Source: a virus. Taken from it: 64,000 nucleotides of DNA. Position numbers and translations under genes: made by a program. Under the pieces are notes generated by a model, which did not search any database, was not told where the DNA came from, and worked only from the letters and a program-made list of their open reading frames with translations. The stretch lies in the IMG/VR virus record IMGVR_UViG_3300045988_062794. The stretch is one strand, 5' to 3'. Positions 3,864 through 22,926 of the stretch are shown piece after piece (positions within the stretch are counted from its first letter, which is position 1; each line of letters begins with the position of its first letter).

Positions 3864-4037
3864 TTTAACATTATTTAATTATTTTTAACATATAGCTTCT
3901 AACGTACACATAAAATTTTTGTTAAAAATATGTAAAAAATAAAAATTGAGCGCAAGGAGAAATTTGAGAGAGCGGGAAGTAGTATATAATTGCCCTCCCC
4001 CTATCATAAGTGAAAGGAAAGTCCCCCGGGGGTTCTC

Positions 4038-9395: not shown

Positions 9396-9746
9396 CAGTT
9401 TACAACTTCATTATTTCTTCAGTGGCTGTACTTGCATGCGAATGTAGGTGCAGTCGTCCTCAGAAAATGACAAACCTGTGGGGCGTAAGTAACTAAGTAG
9501 TAATACTATAATGTCAGTATGTAGTATTACACTGAAACTGACTGTTATGATCGTGCGGACGTAAAAATCAGGTAGATGATAAGAATTGTACTGACAATAC
9601 AATTCTGCTGTATCTTAAAACAAGTTTTGATAGTCAAATTTTCCTAAACCAATCCTCGTTATTAGGTAAAATTTCTTTTTGTTTACGTATTGCTACAACA
9701 ATACACATCTGTTATGTATTTATTTTGCATTGTAGTTGTAGATACA

Positions 9747-10333: not shown

Positions 10334-10585
10334 CTCGCCAGTTATAACTCTTTTATTAATAACTCTAAAGTTAACGCTTATGAGTATGGTGGTTATCCCC
10401 AAGCATGTTAAACCTAACGCCCTAAACTCACTAAAATGTATATGAAGATATATACTACGAGTTGTGTATTTATATACAAATGACATAGTAAAAGTTCTAT
10501 GTTAATTATAAGAAGGAAAGGAGGTAAGATAGGAATAAGGAATAAGAATACTATCTCATGCTTTTTACTTTAGAAACTTATTTGT

Positions 10586-12487: not shown

Positions 12488-12553
12488 GATAATATAGTTC
12501 AATGGTAGAATAATGCTTATGCATAGATCTGGGTTCAAATCCCAGTATTATCA
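12488..12553 (+). ncRNA. 65-nt tRNA-shaped element E2 lacking an anticodon loop (UUAU tetraloop hairpin instead)
   Basis: GATAATA|TA|GTTC-AATGGTA-GAAT|A|ATGC-TTAT-GCAT|AGAT|CTGGG-TTCAAAT-CCCAG|TATTATC|A. It has a 7-bp acceptor stem, a glycine-tRNA-like D-arm and a canonical T-arm. Only 12 nt occupy the position where a 17-nt anticodon arm belongs. Confidence 0.6.
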
Positions 12554-14381: not shown

Positions 14382-14942
14382 ATGAAGAGAGAAGATGAAG
14401 ACAATCTAATTAGGCAGGCTAAACTTGGCGATCAGAAAGCTTTTAGTACGCTTTACGACCGTCACAAGCCATTAATTCGATACATTATCTTTGATATTGT
14501 AAAGAATGATGATGTAGCAGATGATCTCCTATCTGTTACATTTACTAAGGCTTTCAGTCGTATAGACTCATATGTTAATCCTATTTCATTTGAGTTATGG
14601 TTGAAGAGTATTGCGGTCAATACCTCAATTGATTACATACGACACACTAAGAATGAGAAGCAGAATCATTATATTGATTCCGAGGATAATTACATTCAAT
14701 TGCAAGATAGTGAATTGTCTGCAGAAGATATTATATCTAAGCGAGAATCTATTGATCAATTGAAAGTAGCTCTGAGTAGATTGAGGTTTAAGTACCGTAA
14801 TATATTAGAATTACGGTACTTTAAAGGCCTCAGCTATGAACAACTCGCAAATGAATTAGCCGTGCCTATAGGAACTATAAAAAGTGACTTAAACAAGGCT
14901 AAAAAGAAATTACGAGAATTCTATAACAAACTTAATAACTAA
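14382..14942 (+). CDS. ECF-type sigma-70 family RNA polymerase sigma factor
   Basis: 186 aa. The region-2 signature is SFELWLKSIAVNTSIDYIRH. Region 4 is LSRLRFKYRNILELRYFKGLSYEQLANELAVPIGTIKSDLNKAKKKLRE. Confidence 0.85.
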   Translation: MKREDEDNLIRQAKLGDQKAFSTLYDRHKPLIRYIIFDIVKNDDVADDLLSVTFTKAFSRIDSYVNPISFELWLKSIAVNTSIDYIRHTKNEKQNHYIDSEDNYIQLQDSELSAEDIISKRESIDQLKVALSRLRFKYRNILELRYFKGLSYEQLANELAVPIGTIKSDLNKAKKKLREFYNKLNN

Positions 14943-15418: not shown

Positions 15419-16837
15419 ATGGGAAAGAATAAAACAGCAGCAAAGAAGGCTGCACAAGAAAAAGCAGTAGAGACTAAGCAAGGCGAAACTAAAGCCAAAG
15501 TAGAAACAAAGGTAGTAGAAACAAAGGAAAAACCTACAATTAAGGTTGATCCGAAACCGGCTCCTTCACCAACACCAGCACCTAAAGCTGAAGAAAAACC
15601 TACCGAAGAAGGTGGTGTACAGGTTGTTTCTCCTGTTGAACAGTCCTCTGCTCAGCTATCCGCAGAAGTATTCCAGAATGAGGATTTGCGGACGCTTTTG
15701 ATGAAGGATGTGCTTACTCCAGAAACTACTATTGATGCAAATCATATGGTAGAGCTGGCAAAAGTTGCAACTGAACGATTCAAAACAAAGGATCAGAAAG
15801 ATCCGCGCGTAATCGCAACTAATGAAATGATTGACGATGTAACTGCGTATTGTCTTGCACTTGCAGGAATCAACATGCAGATTCATGGTAAAAAGCTTGG
15901 TTTGTCTGTACCGGTTGAAGCTACCGCAAGTTTCGTACGAACTATGGGCTTCTTCGGTGTAGCTTTGCCTGAAGGTAAAGCAATCGAGGATCCTAAGAAT
16001 CCTGGTCAGATGATCTTGCCCTTTGAAGCTTCTGAAGAAGCAGTGAAAACTGTAAAGGAAGAGATCAAGATTCAGAAGAGTAAACCTACGATGGATCCGT
16101 CATTGTGGAAGAGTGATGACGATGCTAAGAAAGCAGTTCGTTATATCATGTCTGATACCTTGACTAAGGACAATCGCTTCTTAGTTTCTATTTCAAAGGT
16201 AAGAATGTACAAGATGCTTACTTCAGCTAACGAAGACGAAAAGAAGATGTGGGAAAACTCCAGCAATGCTGTTATCCTTGAAGTTATCTTCAACATCCTC
16301 GGTGATAGCAAGTCAACATTAATGAATGCTATCGGTGGTCAGATTTATTCCGCAGCAGCAACTCGGAAGAATCCAGTCTTAAGCCATCTTATAGCTAAGC
16401 GTAACTTCTCGCAGTTTAGTGACGAAGATATTCGTGATATCACGAAGGTATTCGTTAAATTTAAAGCTGCGGATAGCTCTAAAGACCCTCTTGAAAACAA
16501 CATTGCCTGGGTTGGCTTAACTCAAGGTAAGAAAGAGGATGCTTTACTTTATCCGAAACGTCTCAGTGACTTCGATAAGAATGTGATGAACCGTATTGAC
16601 AACTTATATCCGGACAAAGTTGGCGTACCATCTGATCCTGATTATCGTAGAAAAGCTTCAAACTTGATGATAACGATTATGAACCTGTATAAGGAGAATG
16701 ATCTGCTTCCTCAGGTATCTGAAACTGATTACAAACAGGCTGTAGAAGATGCTGTTAAAGCAACTTCAGGTGAAACTGCTCCGAAAGAAGAACCCAAACC
16801 AGCCGAAGACAAAAAGGATAAAGGAGAAAAGAAATAA
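15419..16837 (+). CDS. 472-aa protein with Lys/Glu/Pro-rich termini, function unknown
   Basis: Long ORF that looks G+C-richer than the neighbouring small ORFs. The N-terminus is KTAAKKAAQEKAVETKQGETKAKVETKVVETKEKPT.. and the C-terminus is ..KEEPKPAEDKKDKGEKK. Confidence 0.7.
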   Translation: MGKNKTAAKKAAQEKAVETKQGETKAKVETKVVETKEKPTIKVDPKPAPSPTPAPKAEEKPTEEGGVQVVSPVEQSSAQLSAEVFQNEDLRTLLMKDVLTPETTIDANHMVELAKVATERFKTKDQKDPRVIATNEMIDDVTAYCLALAGINMQIHGKKLGLSVPVEATASFVRTMGFFGVALPEGKAIEDPKNPGQMILPFEASEEAVKTVKEEIKIQKSKPTMDPSLWKSDDDAKKAVRYIMSDTLTKDNRFLVSISKVRMYKMLTSANEDEKKMWENSSNAVILEVIFNILGDSKSTLMNAIGGQIYSAAATRKNPVLSHLIAKRNFSQFSDEDIRDITKVFVKFKAADSSKDPLENNIAWVGLTQGKKEDALLYPKRLSDFDKNVMNRIDNLYPDKVGVPSDPDYRRKASNLMITIMNLYKENDLLPQVSETDYKQAVEDAVKATSGETAPKEEPKPAEDKKDKGEKK

Positions 16838-16853
16838 CTCCTAAATCAAAAGG

Positions 16854-17246
16854 ATGAGCCGTTTAACAGATTTTCTTTGGTGCGTATTGTTCGCTTTTGC
16901 AGCGGTTATTATTAGCATCAAATTGAGCCCACAAAGGGTAGAAGCTGTTGAGGTTAAACCTCATTACGAGCTTACAATTCCTAAGGTCGAGCCTAAGTCT
17001 TTTAACTTAGAGCTTGACCTCTCTAAGGGAACAGCGAGAGTAGAAAGTGACGCAGGAATCAGTAACGCTAACGTTACAGTAAATCACCCTGCACCACAAG
17101 TAATTAACAAACCTGCAAAGGTTAAAATTAAGAAAGTATATGAAACAAAAACTGAGGTGTTGTCGAAGGTCGTGATGTTTAAAATGCCTACCCCACGATT
17201 GATTCACACAACAACACCTGAGTATCCTACAAGGGTAGTGAAGTAA
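16854..17246 (+). CDS. N-terminally anchored hypothetical protein
   Basis: 130 aa with FLWCVLFAFAAVIISI. Confidence 0.5.
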   Translation: MSRLTDFLWCVLFAFAAVIISIKLSPQRVEAVEVKPHYELTIPKVEPKSFNLELDLSKGTARVESDAGISNANVTVNHPAPQVINKPAKVKIKKVYETKTEVLSKVVMFKMPTPRLIHTTTPEYPTRVVK

Positions 17247-19540
17247 TTAACATTGTGCTTACTGTAGAATGGCACCAGGGAAAACGAGTCTACCCCTGTA
17301 GTAAGAAGATAGATAGTGGTATTGTAGCTGATACACTTAAAAAGCAATAAAATCAGCGTATATAAATTACGATAAATCTGATCAATTTATGGTTTGTATA
17401 GACAAGTAATACAGAATACGAGAATATGATAACAGCTAACACTGTGATTCAAAAGGTAGTATAATAACTTGCTGTGGATTTATTACTTTATCCATGAAGA
17501 ATCAGCAAGAAAATGGGTAACGGGTATAACCCATAAAGCTCGAGAACCGTCTGGTGGAGCGATTACAACACGGCACGTAGGTCAGCAGACACGAAGGCAA
17601 AGTATACAAATGGGGTACAAATCCTTAAGTAAGTAGAAATGGCAATTCTACTGAATCCCCAATAGAGTCTGTAGGTACTATCAAGTACGGCATCACAGAA
17701 GGACGAAAAGGGTTAATTATCGTTAGAATTCCAAACTAATGATAGCCGTTTAGACTGACTAACGTCTTCGATGGGTCCAAACTATCGTTAAAAATAGCTA
17801 CTTCTAGTGTTCTACTCTACTGTTATTACTGCTTTGTATTACAGTAATAAAGATCTTGACAACATAACATATGGTATAGTTATGGATGAGTATGTGAAAG
17901 GAAGGATTCAAACCAAGAAAATTAATAATCGAAACTAAAAGCTGAGTGGCTATGATCCATACAAAGTTAAAGAGGTAACGGACTTTAATAGCGTATGACA
18001 GATTATCCGGAGCAGGTGCCAAACCTGTGCTTGAGAAAGCTTATTAGAATGTTCACTTAGCCTTGCAAACTAAGTTAAATAGTTCTTTTAAGGGGGTATT
18101 CCAGGTGCTAGGTCTAGATTATGTGGGAGAGATTACCACGTCTTTGCGAAATCAAGGATTAAGAAAGGTATAAGGTTTGAAGAACAGTGACCGAGTTTTG
18201 TGCTTACATTATTTAATGAGAGTTATGTCACTATAAGTCATGGAAACTAAGCACACAGTGGTAAAAGTACTGAGAACTACTACCAAACAACAGAGGTGCA
18301 GTAGCGATGCACGTTGTACGCAATAAAAAAGGAATCCTACCGCCTGCGGTGTTTTAAAGGTGTAGGTAAGTTTAGTTAAAGCTTTCTTTAATAGATATAA
18401 CGAAAGTGGGGCTAATGTATAGTCAATGGGCTAAATTCAAGTCTGTTAATCCAGAGAAATGTAAATGTTACGATGTTTACCTGAATCCAACGATTCATCA
18501 CTGGCTCGAGAGTTAACGAGACTCTTAAATAAAAGCGTGGATAACATGTCTAACTAACGTAGGTCCAAAAACCGAATAATAAATCTGTGGAAGTCCTCGC
18601 TAAGGAAACTGACTGCGACCACAGCTTGGCGAATGCGATTGCTTAGTAGTATCAGGGTATAATGCGCAACATTATATGTCCGAGAGAAAGCGTCTCATTG
18701 AAGCTTATAGACCTTTAAGAGTGAACCTAATAGGGAAACTATACTTATAGACCTGTCATAAGCGAGAGTAGATGAGAAGAGGTGAAAGTCCTCAATCTTC
18801 AACCAAGTAAAATAAATAAAATCCTAGTCATGGTTACGTTGGCATCCCTATACTTAGTAATAAGTATTATATGGCGTAAGAAGTAGGTATTAGTGAATAA
18901 CTATATGAATCCTATAAGTTATTACAAATAACAAAGAATGATGAAACTTACTTCATTCACTTCGCAGTTTTAGTAACGTTCTGAAAAACGACCGGACATA
19001 ACTACTTGCCCGATAGAGAGTTTTATTTTGTTGCCACATAAAATAATTATTAGAGGTCAATCTCTGGATAATCTAAAAGTTAGGCAGTTGTACGCTGTTT
19101 TATGTGAGTGCAGTTGGTCCTGAGACACCAGGAGAACCTTGGCAAAATATTACGGATCCTCTATGATAACGATTGTAGAGTATTTCACACATATTGACTG
19201 AACTAAGAGAATCCTTCGAAGAGTCTCATTAGCTCTGGTCATAAAGCGATTTGATAGTTCCAAAGTAAGATAAATAAGTAATTTTGTAGTATCTGTCTCA
19301 TATTATAAAAGGATATAGCAATAGCATAATATCAAGAAAGTTTATCTCGCTTCTAAAACAAATTAAAGTAAAAACAGTTTCTTTTCGTATTTCTATCTCA
19401 GTATCTCTTGAATGAGACACGACCGTGGTTTTAACCTATCTGATATAAGATGATGATAAATCGTGCATAAAAACAAAGAGAAGAATACGGAGCACCAATT
19501 AAAATTATTATTAACAAACTTATCAAAAGGAGAAAATAAA
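17247..19540 (+). ncRNA. candidate giant structured non-coding RNA region (boundaries and strand provisional)
   Basis: No credible ORF in any of the six frames over ~2.3 kb. All three stop codons are frequent in every frame. Helices paired by hand: 17258-17305 (10 bp), 17468-17509 (7 bp plus a nested 5 bp), 17513-17534 (6 bp), 17611-17661 with a nested helix at 17633-17651, 17823-17850 (9 bp), 18296-18312, 18508-18526 (with a plus-strand-only G:T) and 18776-18800. Internal repeated words are described in the findings. Confidence 0.45.
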
Positions 19541-20107
19541 ATGGCAAATATCAATTATAGTTTAGTAGTTGCATCTCAGTTAGGTGCACTTTTAGGAATG
19601 AATCTCATTCACATTCGTCGCAAAAATGTAGATCCCGACTATTCTAACAAAGAACGGGAAGGTAAACAACGTCTGGCAATTCCAGTATATATCTATGGTA
19701 TTGACCGTATTAAGATTAAGAAAGCTGAACTTGTAGACCTTGGTGAAGGTCAGCGGATTGTTCAGTTTAATGATGATCCGAAATTGCAGTTATCTCTGGC
19801 AAATGCAAAAGATATCACAGATGTTATTAAGAAACCAACTGTTCAGGAGGTTGCGAATGCTGTAATGGCTGAAGAAGCCAGTGCGCAACAGACGTTCTTT
19901 GTAGACGACAAAACTGCAACAGAACTTGCGGTTTCCTTTAACAACAGATCGTATAAGGAACTTTCCTCCATGATGGAGGTGCTCTCACGTCAGGCAGCCT
20001 GTTTAACGGATGCTAATGACGCTATGATGAATGCTTGCAAGTTAGAAATGGCACAGGTAGGTAAAAGTGTCGATTTCGTTCCCATTAACGTTAATGAAAC
20101 AAAATAA
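19541..20107 (+). CDS. hypothetical protein
   Basis: Track ORF 19463 (GTG) trimmed to ATG 19541, which is preceded by AAAGGAG. The product starts MANINYSLVVASQLG... Confidence 0.6.
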   Translation: MANINYSLVVASQLGALLGMNLIHIRRKNVDPDYSNKEREGKQRLAIPVYIYGIDRIKIKKAELVDLGEGQRIVQFNDDPKLQLSLANAKDITDVIKKPTVQEVANAVMAEEASAQQTFFVDDKTATELAVSFNNRSYKELSSMMEVLSRQAACLTDANDAMMNACKLEMAQVGKSVDFVPINVNETK

Positions 20108-20625
20108 TGACAGAACTAAGCAAGACTTCGAAGTTAAATCTCGAACGTATTCTTGCAGATGAAGATATTCGTAGCTCTTTGCTTTATAATGGCAAAAAGC
20201 CAGGTATCTTTAAATTAAATGCAGATGGATCGCTTACACTTGGTGAAACTACATTTGGTTGGTGGAATAGTTTTATTGGGTGTCAGCAGCACTTAAGCTT
20301 TTCAGATCTGACTGTACATTTGATTAATTTCATGGCTGGTGTTGGTAAAAATCAAAATGATTTTGCTCTGAATGGATTATTCCAAGATTTCGTTAACTTT
20401 GCACTTAAGCAGAAAGACAAGAATAGGATGGTAGATATCTTGTTAACTGCATATTTGTATGGTTATAAAGAAATACAGAAGGATGGAAGGAAACCTTCTG
20501 TGGATACAGTAATTAATTCAGTTATCAGACAACAAGATGTTCGTGATTTAGATGGTGTCGCTGTTTTAACCAGCGATGGTCCTGTATTACTAAGAAATAA
20601 CTTAGTATTCCAAAGACTTAAATAG
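20107..20625 (+). CDS. hypothetical protein
   Basis: 172-aa ORF whose ATG overlaps the upstream stop (TAATG). Confidence 0.6.
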   Translation: MTELSKTSKLNLERILADEDIRSSLLYNGKKPGIFKLNADGSLTLGETTFGWWNSFIGCQQHLSFSDLTVHLINFMAGVGKNQNDFALNGLFQDFVNFALKQKDKNRMVDILLTAYLYGYKEIQKDGRKPSVDTVINSVIRQQDVRDLDGVAVLTSDGPVLLRNNLVFQRLK

Positions 20626-22860: not shown

Positions 22861-22926
22861 TTGTGTATAGTTTAATGGTAGAATATCTCGAAAGAGAAGA
22901 TATGAGTTCGAGCCTCATTACACAAC
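22861..22926 (+). ncRNA. 65-nt tRNA-shaped element E4 lacking an anticodon loop (GAAA tetraloop hairpin instead); twin of E2
   Basis: TTGTGTA|TA|GTTT-AATGGTA-GAAT|A|TCTC-GAAA-GAGA|AGAT|ATGAG-TTCGAGC-CTCAT|TACACAA|C. The architecture, the TAGTTyAATGGTAGAATA D-arm and the AGAT spacer are the same as in E2. A GGCAA/TTGCC hairpin (22846-22860) abuts its 5' end. Confidence 0.6.

Follow-up and report, generated by a model that had tools for sequence, protein, structure and literature searches.

A kilobase-scale candidate structured RNA locus at a fixed genomic position in crAss-like phages of the family Suoliviridae

Large ornate RNAs and the locus

GOLLD and ROOL RNAs are about 0.6-0.8 kb long, and OLE RNA, a cellular RNA of Firmicutes of about 0.6 kb, acts as a ribonucleoprotein with OapA/B/C. 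All three are among the families of Rfam 15, together with HEARO, RNase P, tmRNA, group I/II introns and rRNA. GOLLD and ROOL, large ornate RNAs that phages and prophages encode, are described by cryo-EM as RNA-only homo-oligomeric assemblies (PMC12286853). Virus-wide screens have also drawn short structured-RNA candidates from IMG/VR-type intergenic sequence by covariation; the candidates measure 30-151 nt and crAss-like phages go unmentioned in the main text of both sources, and individual hairpins of the element described below may be among them (PMC10690425, PMC8040213).

The window analysed here, a 64,000-nt stretch of phage DNA from IMG/VR, carries an ORF-free block that very probably encodes a conserved, functional, plus-strand structured non-coding RNA of a new family. 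The closest known kind is that of GOLLD and ROOL, as a kind and not as homologues. Like them, the element is phage-encoded, far exceeds 500 nt, and is a multi-domain non-coding sequence with many conserved, covarying hairpins and invariant loops. Ornate RNAs of phages often sit beside tRNA genes, and RNA genes also lie in the vicinity of this element (tRNA-like ones in the window, tmRNA in relatives), none of them immediately adjacent. With a core of about 1.6 kb the element exceeds GOLLD and ROOL two- to threefold in length, and their Rfam models match neither its sequence nor its structure; its phages are crAss-like and infect Bacteroidota; and it occupies a fixed syntenic position in an operon. 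With OLE RNA the element shares large size, structure, an operon setting and conservation with specific neighbouring protein genes, but the sequences are unrelated, and profile searches found no homologues of the OLE partner proteins among the neighbour proteins. Successive domains with their own closing helices, the kilobase scale, invariant loops and variable 'expansion' hairpins at fixed sites recall the domains of rRNA; the SSU and LSU models find no match, however, in this phage-encoded element, in which GAGAACCG...GGUG may resemble the sarcin-ricin loop sequence. Rfam 15 gives no match in 17100-19650 at the gathering score, just two chance matches of ~20 nt at E<=10 with permissive filters, and nothing inside the element of 10 divergent relatives, consistent with membership in no known family. 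A search of the openly accessible literature on crAss-like phages, Crassvirales and Suoliviridae turned up no description of the element.

Conservation and coding status of the block

From the stop of the gene at 16854-17246 to the ATG at 19541 there are zero plus-strand ORFs of at least 60 aa, and the only ORF of this size within the block is a 72-aa antisense frame at 17804-18022. Each of the six frames contains TAA, TAG and TGA in abundance (7-41 per frame), and any single stop reassignment opens at most 111 codons. The G+C content is 0.37-0.38, against ~0.31-0.34 across most of the window, and the block contains no iterons or tandem arrays, just short two-copy matches. In outline, these properties had been claimed in the preliminary description and were borne out by the scans. 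Its further statement that other spacers are mostly under 350 nt holds downstream of ~12.5 kb and fails in the first 12 kb of the window, where ORF-poor stretches reach 0.7-1.2 kb. Substitutions among close relatives display a phase bias in all four flanking CDSs (p = 1e-3 to 1e-19); the same test finds no codon-phase bias in the four segments of the gap (p = 0.1-0.94). The block has neither the open frame nor the codon-phase bias of a protein-coding gene, standard or recoded, and is neither decayed nor recoded coding sequence. Two records from Oafivirinae place an annotated antisense ORF within their own copy of the block.

A gap of 2.0-2.5 kb with identical synteny is present in every relative examined in three Suoliviridae subfamilies, at the same syntenic position in at least 60 loci, and its order, orientation and total length are constant across the subfamilies. 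What these relatives keep at the site is the block and not a gene. No empty site was seen among the members listed. Counted as effectively independent lineages, the sequences amount to a modest ~30-45 clusters in the three subfamilies, and the relatives carrying the block come from human, pig and macaque gut and from one human airway sample. Among the matches listed, the only carriers are crAss-type contigs of ~100 kb, including mis-binned MAG contigs. Members number at least in the hundreds. The 5' junction differs by lineage in the presence or absence of a 27-codon mini-ORF.

Between close relatives the gap accumulates 0.008-0.035 variable sites per nt, against 0.031-0.056 in the CDSs, with the lowest variability (0.008) in the middle region. 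At larger distances, with the neighbouring protein down to 24-30% identity, sub-blocks still retain 80-90% at the DNA level; the flanking genes of those same relatives, unlike the sub-blocks, yield no DNA match. Parts of the block are conserved far above the flanking genes at the nucleotide level, and the block is under purifying selection and non-coding.

Domain organization and covariation

The element contains several domains in which the helices covary and the loops and joining strands are invariant (Table 1). The core is laid out as islands of invariant sequence with hairpin insertions of variable length between them.

Table 1. Features of the block and its neighbours in window coordinates
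Feature	Position	Strand	Basis
Upstream neighbours, 472-aa and 130-aa proteins	15419..17246	+	same order in all subfamilies
Whole ORF-free block, candidate RNA locus	17247..19540	+	no plus-strand ORF of at least 60 aa
Conserved structured core, ~1.6 kb	17250..18830	+	family-wide conservation profile and consensus
Two 5' hairpins	17255-59/17271-75 and 17276-80/17294-98 (17255..17298)	+	Boorivirinae-level covariation
Domain A, family-wide core	17398..17600	+	covariation, motifs common to three subfamilies
Domain A, helix P	17416-19/17459-62	+	
Domain A, invariant strand GAGAAUAUG	17420-28	+	
Domain A, hairpin	17432-35/17442-45	+	
Domain A, invariant strand CAAAAGGUAG	17450-59	+	
Domain A, hairpin	17468-74/17503-09	+	
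Domain A, hairpin	17513-17/17530-34	+	
Domain A, hairpin around invariant loop GAGAACCGUCUGGUG (17542-56)	17538-41/17557-60	+	
Middle region, subfamily-variable, with conserved islands and covarying hairpins	17601..18365	+	RNAalifold, z-scores
Middle-region hairpins, examples	17768-74/17782-88, 17989-97/18004-12, 18013-17/18023-27, 18186-98/18221-32	+	
Domain B1, mostly invariant helices	18366..18624	+	conservation and block B z-score
Domain B1, domain-closing helices	~18408-13/18591-96 and ~18429-34/18502-07	+	predicted
Domain B1, hairpin	18509-13/18521-25	+	conserved, invariant
Domain B2	18612..18818	+	covariation test A4
Domain B2, closing helix	18625-29/18803-07	+	covarying
Domain B2, GCAA-loop hairpin	18657-64/18670-77	+	
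Domain B2, CUGUC-loop hairpin	18744-48/18758-62	+	by eye only
Domain B2, hairpin GAGG-UGAAAGU-CCUC	18779-82/18790-93	+	
3' tail	18851..19540	+	conservation 30-50%, weaker consensus structure
Downstream neighbours, 188-aa and 172-aa proteins	19541..20625	+	conserved synteny

Covariation is strong in domains A and B2. The 16 pairs of domain A (test A5) are 97.0% paired against 75.8% when shuffled (0/500), slid registers pair only 32-48%, and double compensatory changes occur at 10 of the 16. The stem around loop GAGAACCGUCUGGUG, followed without an alignment, occurs with 18 distinct complementary arm pairs and is 96% paired against 52% under the null. Domain B2 behaves likewise (test A4): its 17 pairs are 97.8% paired against 74.5% when shuffled (0/500), slid registers give 26-47%, and 14 of the 17 carry double compensatory changes. 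Its closing helix is found as CUUGG/CCAAG, CAAGC/GCUUG, GUGC/GCAC, CUGC/GCAG, CUAC/GUAG and GUAC/GUAC; the invariant flanks of the domain are CCAACCG (GCGAAUG in the lineage of the window) and AUUCG...UAUAAA. Sequence-anchor regular expressions for the CUGUC loop, the GCAA loop and H5 were too unspecific for the stem test. At the 5' end, GUGC/GCAC is exchanged for ACAG/CUGU and CAGGG/CCCUG for CGGG/CCCG, with double changes at 4/5 and 2/5 pairs of the two hairpins. In the middle region, RNAalifold on 10 Boorivirinae sequences finds 4-6 double-change pairs per helix; across subfamilies, MAFFT did not bring the mid motif into register. Domain B1, which bears the invariant motif UAACAUGUYUAAC, shows double changes at only 11 of its 43 predicted pairs and is supported by conservation and the block B z-score, without strong covariation.

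AlifoldZ-type z-scores for consensus folding of the four core segments are -8.7, -4.7, -6.3 and -7.9 (-4.7 and -6.3 being those of the middle region), against +0.66 and -1.53 for adjacent CDSs as negative controls. The 3' tail reaches z = -5.0, but with just -46.5 kcal/mol over 650 nt; its conservation between subfamilies is poor, although close relatives differ less here than in their CDSs, and both the 3' end of the RNA and the signals for expressing the following gene are probably located in it. The consensus energy is better on the plus than on the minus strand in all segments, and one pair of domain B2 is G·U in 14/19 sequences, so that the plus strand is the folded one; the orientation of the block is that of all neighbouring genes.

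The preliminary description had paired a number of helices by hand. They exist at the positions given there, but as single-sequence structures do not rise above chance, the MFE z against dinucleotide shuffles being -0.68 for 17250-17600 and +0.26 for 18366-18850. Comparison with relatives separates them: 17468-74/17503-09 with its nested helix, 17513-17/17530-34 and 18779-82/18790-93 are backed by relatives, 18509-13/18521-25 is conserved, though invariant, and those at 17823-50 and 18296-312 gain partial support. The first of the series, CTTACTGTAG/CTGTAGTAAG, is not preserved in relatives and conflicts with the two covarying 5' hairpins. Word repeats, read as a sign of modular architecture, amount to two-copy matches: the doubled CTTATAGACCT reflects a lineage-specific 40-nt duplication, and CTRACTAACGT is not conserved. 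The central proposal, that the block is a conserved structured RNA on the plus strand, non-coding, unusually large and without homology to known families, is supported.

The validated long-range helices span ~180-330 nt and each closes an individual domain. An all-against-all scan of the 45-sequence family alignment found no helix joining domain A to domain B; helix counts equalled the parallel-register null (80 vs 80), only a few top-scoring helices stood out (5 vs 0), and the scan was dropped as a route to the global architecture. Also discarded were long-range RNAalifold pairs over 1.6 kb, which clash with the validated closing helix; thirteen long inverted repeats, seven of them core-to-tail, which are chance and not kept beyond the nearest relative; and the probe CGAGAGUnAn6CUCUUAAA, which gave chance matches in 16/21 new contigs.

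Alternative readings, neighbourhood and possible role

Whether the block is a single RNA molecule is, in our judgement, evenly balanced. The rather unlikely converse is a tandem set of smaller independent structured RNAs or cis-regulatory or processing elements (A, the middle hairpins, B1 and B2), processed from one transcript or made from separate promoters in the manner of Hatchet and RAGATH-9. The closure of single domains by the validated helices, the lack of A-to-B pairing above the null, the separation of conserved islands by variable spacers, and the separate small ribozymes in other spacers of the same phage all speak for such a set. Against it stand the order, orientation and 2.0-2.5 kb length that three subfamilies hold constant, and the inter-domain segments, in which a consensus-structure signal is likewise present and close relatives vary very little. 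Scans for sigma-70 promoters and intrinsic terminators stayed at shuffle level, with no conserved promoter- or terminator-like signal between domains; and large multi-domain RNAs such as rRNA are likewise built of locally closed domains.

The other readings fare worse. A DNA-level element (a replication origin, primer-RNA region or packaging site whose structure serves DNA or an R-loop) would suit so long a non-coding stretch in a genome that is compact, with an AAA+ ATPase a few kb downstream that has weak helicase-loader and clamp-loader-like matches. We consider it very improbable, as the block has no iterons, initiator boxes, tandem repeats or AT-rich unwinding tract, its G+C exceeds the surroundings, cumulative GC skew rises steadily through it and turns near 4 kb and 35 kb, and the many compensatory changes, with G·U pairs that favour one strand, point to a single-stranded transcript. 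Delta-group crAss-like phages commonly contain self-splicing introns and mobile RNA elements (PMC7886860), and conserved 5' and 3' blocks around a variable centre would fit such an element, be it a group I or II intron whose homing ORF may have decayed or a mobile RNA of another kind. The chance of this is slighter still: group I/II models give no match even at E<=10; in every lineage both flanking genes are intact, with a stop and a start of their own, and stay separate instead of forming exons that join into one ORF; the lineage-dependent 5' junction does not conserve the group II GUGYG (the window reads GUGCU, a relative ACAGU); all members share one site with no empty site among the matches listed, unlike a mobile element; and neither the ORFs nor the six-frame stops reveal a remnant of an endonuclease or RT. 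That the block is a protein-coding gene, hidden or decayed, under an alternative code, with frameshifts or as a pseudogene, is barely credible. TAG or TGA is recoded in many crAss-like phages and the Oafivirinae annotations hint at a gene, but all three stops abound in every frame, the test for 3-nt periodicity of substitutions, which works on all four flanking genes, detects none here, and chance ORFs are not the same from lineage to lineage. Read under code 11, the annotated cr7_1 antisense ORF is interrupted by two in-frame stops, and the congener cr124_1 lacks it; a pseudogene would be expected to be no less variable than the neighbouring genes, whereas the block is less variable.

The block lies within an early/middle gene string that starts at a phage ECF-type sigma factor. 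Searches of Pfam, PHROGs, NCBIfam and PDB sequences with the neighbouring proteins returned nothing above threshold; for the 472-aa and 130-aa proteins, Pfam, PHROG and NCBIfam gave no match. The 472-aa protein has a Lys-rich disordered N-terminus (residues 1-129), an AF2 pLDDT of 62.5 and a weak IF3-C/Alba-like domain match (E 0.3-1.6); AF2 with Foldseek found no significant PDB fold match, and the proposal of the preliminary description that it could be a partner of the RNA has this sub-threshold fold hint on its side. Matches of the downstream proteins stay below threshold: Prp protease at E=9e-4 scores 19.5 bits where 166 are required, and L23 reaches E=0.03. Foldseek matches of the 188-aa model (pLDDT 61) are meaningless. 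tRNA-like matches occur ~5 kb upstream and 3.3 kb downstream of the block, Hatchet and RAGATH-9 ribozymes in other spacers further upstream, and tRNAs and a permuted tmRNA near the element in relatives. A UG/Abi reverse-transcriptase lead was dropped, there being no RT near the element.

Under the preferred reading, the block would encode a very large structured non-coding RNA, with a core of ~1.6 kb, maybe ~2.2 kb with the tail. It would be co-transcribed with the upstream genes, since neither a terminator nor a gap separates it from the 130-aa gene, and would fold into rRNA-style domains, each with its own closing helix. Invariant single-stranded motifs, among them GAGAAUAUG, CAAAAGGUAGGAU, GAGAACCGUYUGGYG, CCAACCG, CUGUC and UGRAAWU, may be surfaces where tertiary contacts form or a partner docks. 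Its likeliest role, though in itself improbable, would be that of a trans-acting scaffold, catalytic RNA or RNP needed for infection, in the manner of GOLLD and ROOL; a tie to translation or RNA metabolism is suggested by the RNA-gene-rich neighbourhood (tRNA-like genes, Hatchet, RAGATH-9, permuted tmRNA in relatives). These functional proposals are made with low confidence, by analogy and from the neighbourhood, the hints from neighbour proteins all being below threshold. That the whole 1.6-2.2 kb forms one rRNA-scale ribozyme, RNP scaffold or RNA-only assembly needed for infection family-wide is possible, at somewhat less than an even chance.

If it is a single molecule, it would to our knowledge exceed in size every structured RNA so far known from phages or bacteria outside the ribosome, and we know of no earlier large functional RNA described for Crassvirales. 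The few large ornate RNAs on record (GOLLD, ROOL, OLE) would be joined by one from a new lineage and of much larger size, and RNA structural biology would gain a new target. For annotators, the element is a reason against forcing ORFs into the gap, as some deposited records do. Suoliviridae are abundant human gut phages, and the element occupies the same place family-wide in the relatives examined; a kilobase-scale RNA under tighter constraint than the surrounding proteins, in three subfamilies and several host animals, would point to an RNA-based function central to these phages.

An ORF-free block conserved in place

The window is a segment of a crAss-like phage genome, and its nearest GenBank relatives belong to the Suoliviridae, subfamily Boorivirinae. 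From the stop codon of the 130-aa gene at 17246 to the ATG at 19541, the plus strand lacks any ORF of at least 60 aa; the antisense strand has one, of 72 aa. TAA, TAG and TGA each occur 7-41 times per frame in all six frames, and the longest frame gained by reassigning a single one of them is 111 codons. The G+C content is slightly above that of most of the window, and iterons and tandem repeats are absent. The preliminary description of the block was correct in these respects. It had also called the block helix-dense, which is not demonstrable from the window sequence alone because the MFE of the two best-conserved blocks is ordinary against dinucleotide shuffles (z = -0.68 and +0.26); the hairpins it paired by eye are what any equally long sequence would give.

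A gap of 2.0-2.5 kb, unannotated or nearly so, lies in the same gene string of every relative examined: ECF-type sigma factor, small membrane protein, ~470-510-aa protein, one or two proteins of ~130 aa, gap, ~190-210-aa protein, ~180-aa protein. The relatives comprise Boorivirinae (cr10_1, cr50_1, cr1_1, cr55_1), Loutivirinae (cr52_1, cr53_1, cr4_1, cr60_1, cr56_1), Oafivirinae (cr272_1 and cr273_1 from pig, cr130_1 from macaque, cr124_1, cr7_1, and Bohxovirus from an endotracheal aspirate) and 60+ IMG/VR contigs. Sub-blocks of the gap show 80-90% DNA identity over 40-377 nt to genera further away, where the adjacent protein shares only 24-30% identity and the flanking genes have no DNA-level match. 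A family probe of two invariant motifs matched at least 120 viral contigs and delivered at least 117 unique full-length elements, which fall into at least 43 clusters when grouped at 95% identity. Among bacterial and archaeal genomes the same probe matches MAG contigs only; several are ~100 kb long, and they are evidently phage genomes binned by mistake. One relative's record, L276 (JAJXAL010000002.1, 101,041 bp, a 'Segatella copri' MAG), and other ~100-kb MAG contigs are complete crAss-like genomes with the element; for the L276 lineage, the Segatella copri bin possibly points to a Prevotella/Segatella host. In most lineages a hydrophobic mini-ORF of ~27 codons (MKAKNSTLDKLAFVGLIIFFIMCLFFAWCI) separates the 130-aa gene from the RNA; the window lineage has lost it by a clean deletion (at 17246/17247).

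Coordinates of the element, its neighbours and other features (L-numbers denote relatives' records carrying copies of the locus)
Feature	Record	Coordinates	Strand	Basis
Hatchet self-cleaving ribozyme	window	9456-9573	+	Rfam, 85 bits, gathering 51
RAGATH-9 RNA	window	10389-10566	+	Rfam, 92 bits, gathering 75
tRNA match	window	12488-12553	+	Rfam, 59 bits
ECF-type sigma factor	window	14382-14942	+	Sigma70_r2 + r4; PHROG 'RNA polymerase sigma factor' 1.6e-27
472-aa protein	window	15419-16837	+	
Domain A	window	17398-17600	+	
Domain B2	window	18612-18818	+	
B2 closing helix	window	18625-29/18803-07	+	
Exact 11-nt repeat CTTATAGACCT	window	18704-18714, 18744-18754		
188-aa protein	window	19541-20107	+	
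172-aa protein	window	20107-20625	+	
tRNA match	window	22861-22926	+	Rfam, 48 bits
Mini-ORF	L001	about 3895-3980		
tmRNA/tRNA region	L168	12532-12871		
tmRNA/tRNA region	L173	4716-4980		
tmRNA/tRNA region	L189	6710-6975		
tmRNA	L152	3052-3421		annotated
tmRNA	L153	2877-3323		annotated
Antisense 'hypothetical protein'	L280	4263-4745	-	annotated
Antisense 'hypothetical protein'	L278	4261-4767	-	annotated

Covariation, folding and strand

Invariant single-stranded motifs of the family consensus, among them GAGAAUAUG, CAAAAGGUAGGAU, GAGAACCGUYUGGYG, UAACAUGUYUAAC, CCAACCG and AUUCG.GCA..UAUAAA, are separated by hairpins of variable sequence and length. Domain B2, analysed in 19 sequences spanning three subfamilies, has three helices with 17 pairs in all. 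Pairing holds in 97.8% of cells, a level that 0 of 500 shuffles reach; the shuffled value is 74.5%. Double compensatory changes occur in 14 of the 17 pairs, and pairing falls to 26-47% when the 3' partner is shifted by 1-3 columns. B2 closes with the helix CUUGG/CCAAG in the window and with CAAGC/GCUUG, GUGC/GCAC, CUGC/GCAG, CUAC/GUAG or GUAC/GUAC in others. Domain A behaves likewise (23 sequences, 16 pairs): 97.0% paired against 75.8% shuffled (0/500), and 32-48% in slid registers. An alignment-free test of the four bases on each side of the invariant loop GAGAACCGnYUGGnG, run on the 117 unique elements retrieved, found 18 different arm pairs; these are 96% complementary, and the value drops to 52% when the two arms come from different sequences. 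The B2 repeat marks a ~40-nt lineage-specific duplication of a hairpin arm, present as a single copy in other lineages.

Consensus folding energies of ten Boorivirinae representatives were compared with those of columns shuffled within gap and conservation classes (an AlifoldZ-type test). Five gap segments including the 3' tail gave z of -8.7, -4.7, -6.3, -7.9 and -5.0, against +0.66 and -1.53 for two adjacent CDSs of the same genomes. Three observations point to the plus strand. One B2 pair is a G·U wobble in 14 of the 19 sequences, which would be a C·A mismatch on the opposite strand; consensus energies favour the plus strand in every segment (e.g. -135.0 against -109.6 kcal/mol), and the neighbouring genes all run in the plus direction.

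Identity of the element and rival readings

The block is a genuine non-coding RNA element, structured and conserved, and constitutes a new family. The comparison with Rfam that the preliminary description proposed returned no family for the block: Rfam 15 gave no match at gathering thresholds or at E<=10, nor any for the element in ten divergent relatives. We recognise no signature motifs of RNase P, group I or II introns or rRNA in the family consensus. Our literature search turned up no account of a large RNA from Crassvirales. Yutin et al. go no further than noting that some crAss-like genomes have regions without recognisable proteins (PMC7886860), and the motifs reported by virus-wide screens are 30-151 nt long (PMC10690425).

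A hidden CDS is contradicted by the periodicity of substitutions between the window, four close relatives and four relatives at about 74% identity: changes cluster at third codon positions in all four flanking CDSs (chi-square p 1e-3 to 1e-19), and no codon phase stands out in the four gap segments (p = 0.1-0.94). Variable sites per nt among close relatives number 0.008-0.035 in the gap against 0.031-0.056 in genes, the opposite of what a decayed gene would show. ORFs of at least 90 aa in some relatives' gaps differ between lineages. The antisense ORF annotated within the element in records of cr7_1 and Bohxovirus 'endotrachealis' is probably an annotation artefact; read with the standard code (code 11), that of cr7_1 contains two in-frame stops, and it is missing from the congener cr124_1. 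The intron reading is opposed by the lack of any intron model match and by flanking genes that are both complete; an empty site was not observed either. Against a replication origin or primer region stand the lack of iterons and of a GC-skew inflection, and the G·U asymmetry, which points to a transcript.

That the locus yields several independent RNAs instead of one is plausible, though less likely than not. The covariation scan, RNAalifold pairs and inverted repeats give no evidence of a fold joining domains A and B. The all-against-all scan of the 45-sequence family alignment returned 80 antiparallel helices against 80 in the parallel-register null, and 5 against 0 at the highest scores; long-range RNAalifold pairs conflict with the validated B2 closing helix, and long inverted repeats from core to tail are not conserved. 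Domain B1 shows little covariation because it is mostly invariant within a subfamily, and the middle could not be aligned in register across subfamilies. A scan for consensus promoters and terminators stayed at chance level.

An RNA-rich neighbourhood and a proposed role

The conserved gene string containing the RNA is headed by the ECF-type sigma factor. Upstream, the 472-aa protein combines a Lys-rich, disordered N-terminus with a core predicted at moderate confidence; Foldseek found no significant match in the PDB, and a ~90-residue domain shows a recurring weak likeness to IF3 C-terminal and Alba folds (E 0.3-1.6). Downstream, the 188-aa protein has a sub-threshold L23 match (E = 0.03) and the 172-aa protein matches the Prp ribosomal-processing protease at E = 9e-4, far below the curated cut-off. 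These three sub-threshold hints of translation or RNA may be coincidence and are not counted as evidence.

The window phage has several RNA elements besides the large one. Hatchet and RAGATH-9 both occupy spacers between genes of the plus-strand early region to which the large element also belongs. ARAGORN called 0 tRNAs in the window, leaving both Rfam tRNA matches uncalled; tRNAs of unusual or truncated form, or structures resembling tRNAs, may explain them. In relatives a permuted tmRNA and tRNAs precede the sigma-factor gene by a few kb; the window yielded no tmRNA.

The element belongs with the large ornate phage RNAs of unknown function, and is far larger if it is a single molecule. The RNA would most likely be transcribed together with the upstream genes and fold into locally closed domains, with the invariant loops as putative interaction surfaces. 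Because of the analogy with GOLLD, ROOL and OLE and the RNA-rich neighbourhood (Hatchet, RAGATH-9 and tRNA-like genes in the window, permuted tmRNA in relatives), we favour a role as a trans-acting scaffold or catalytic RNA, or as an RNP, that would be used in infection.
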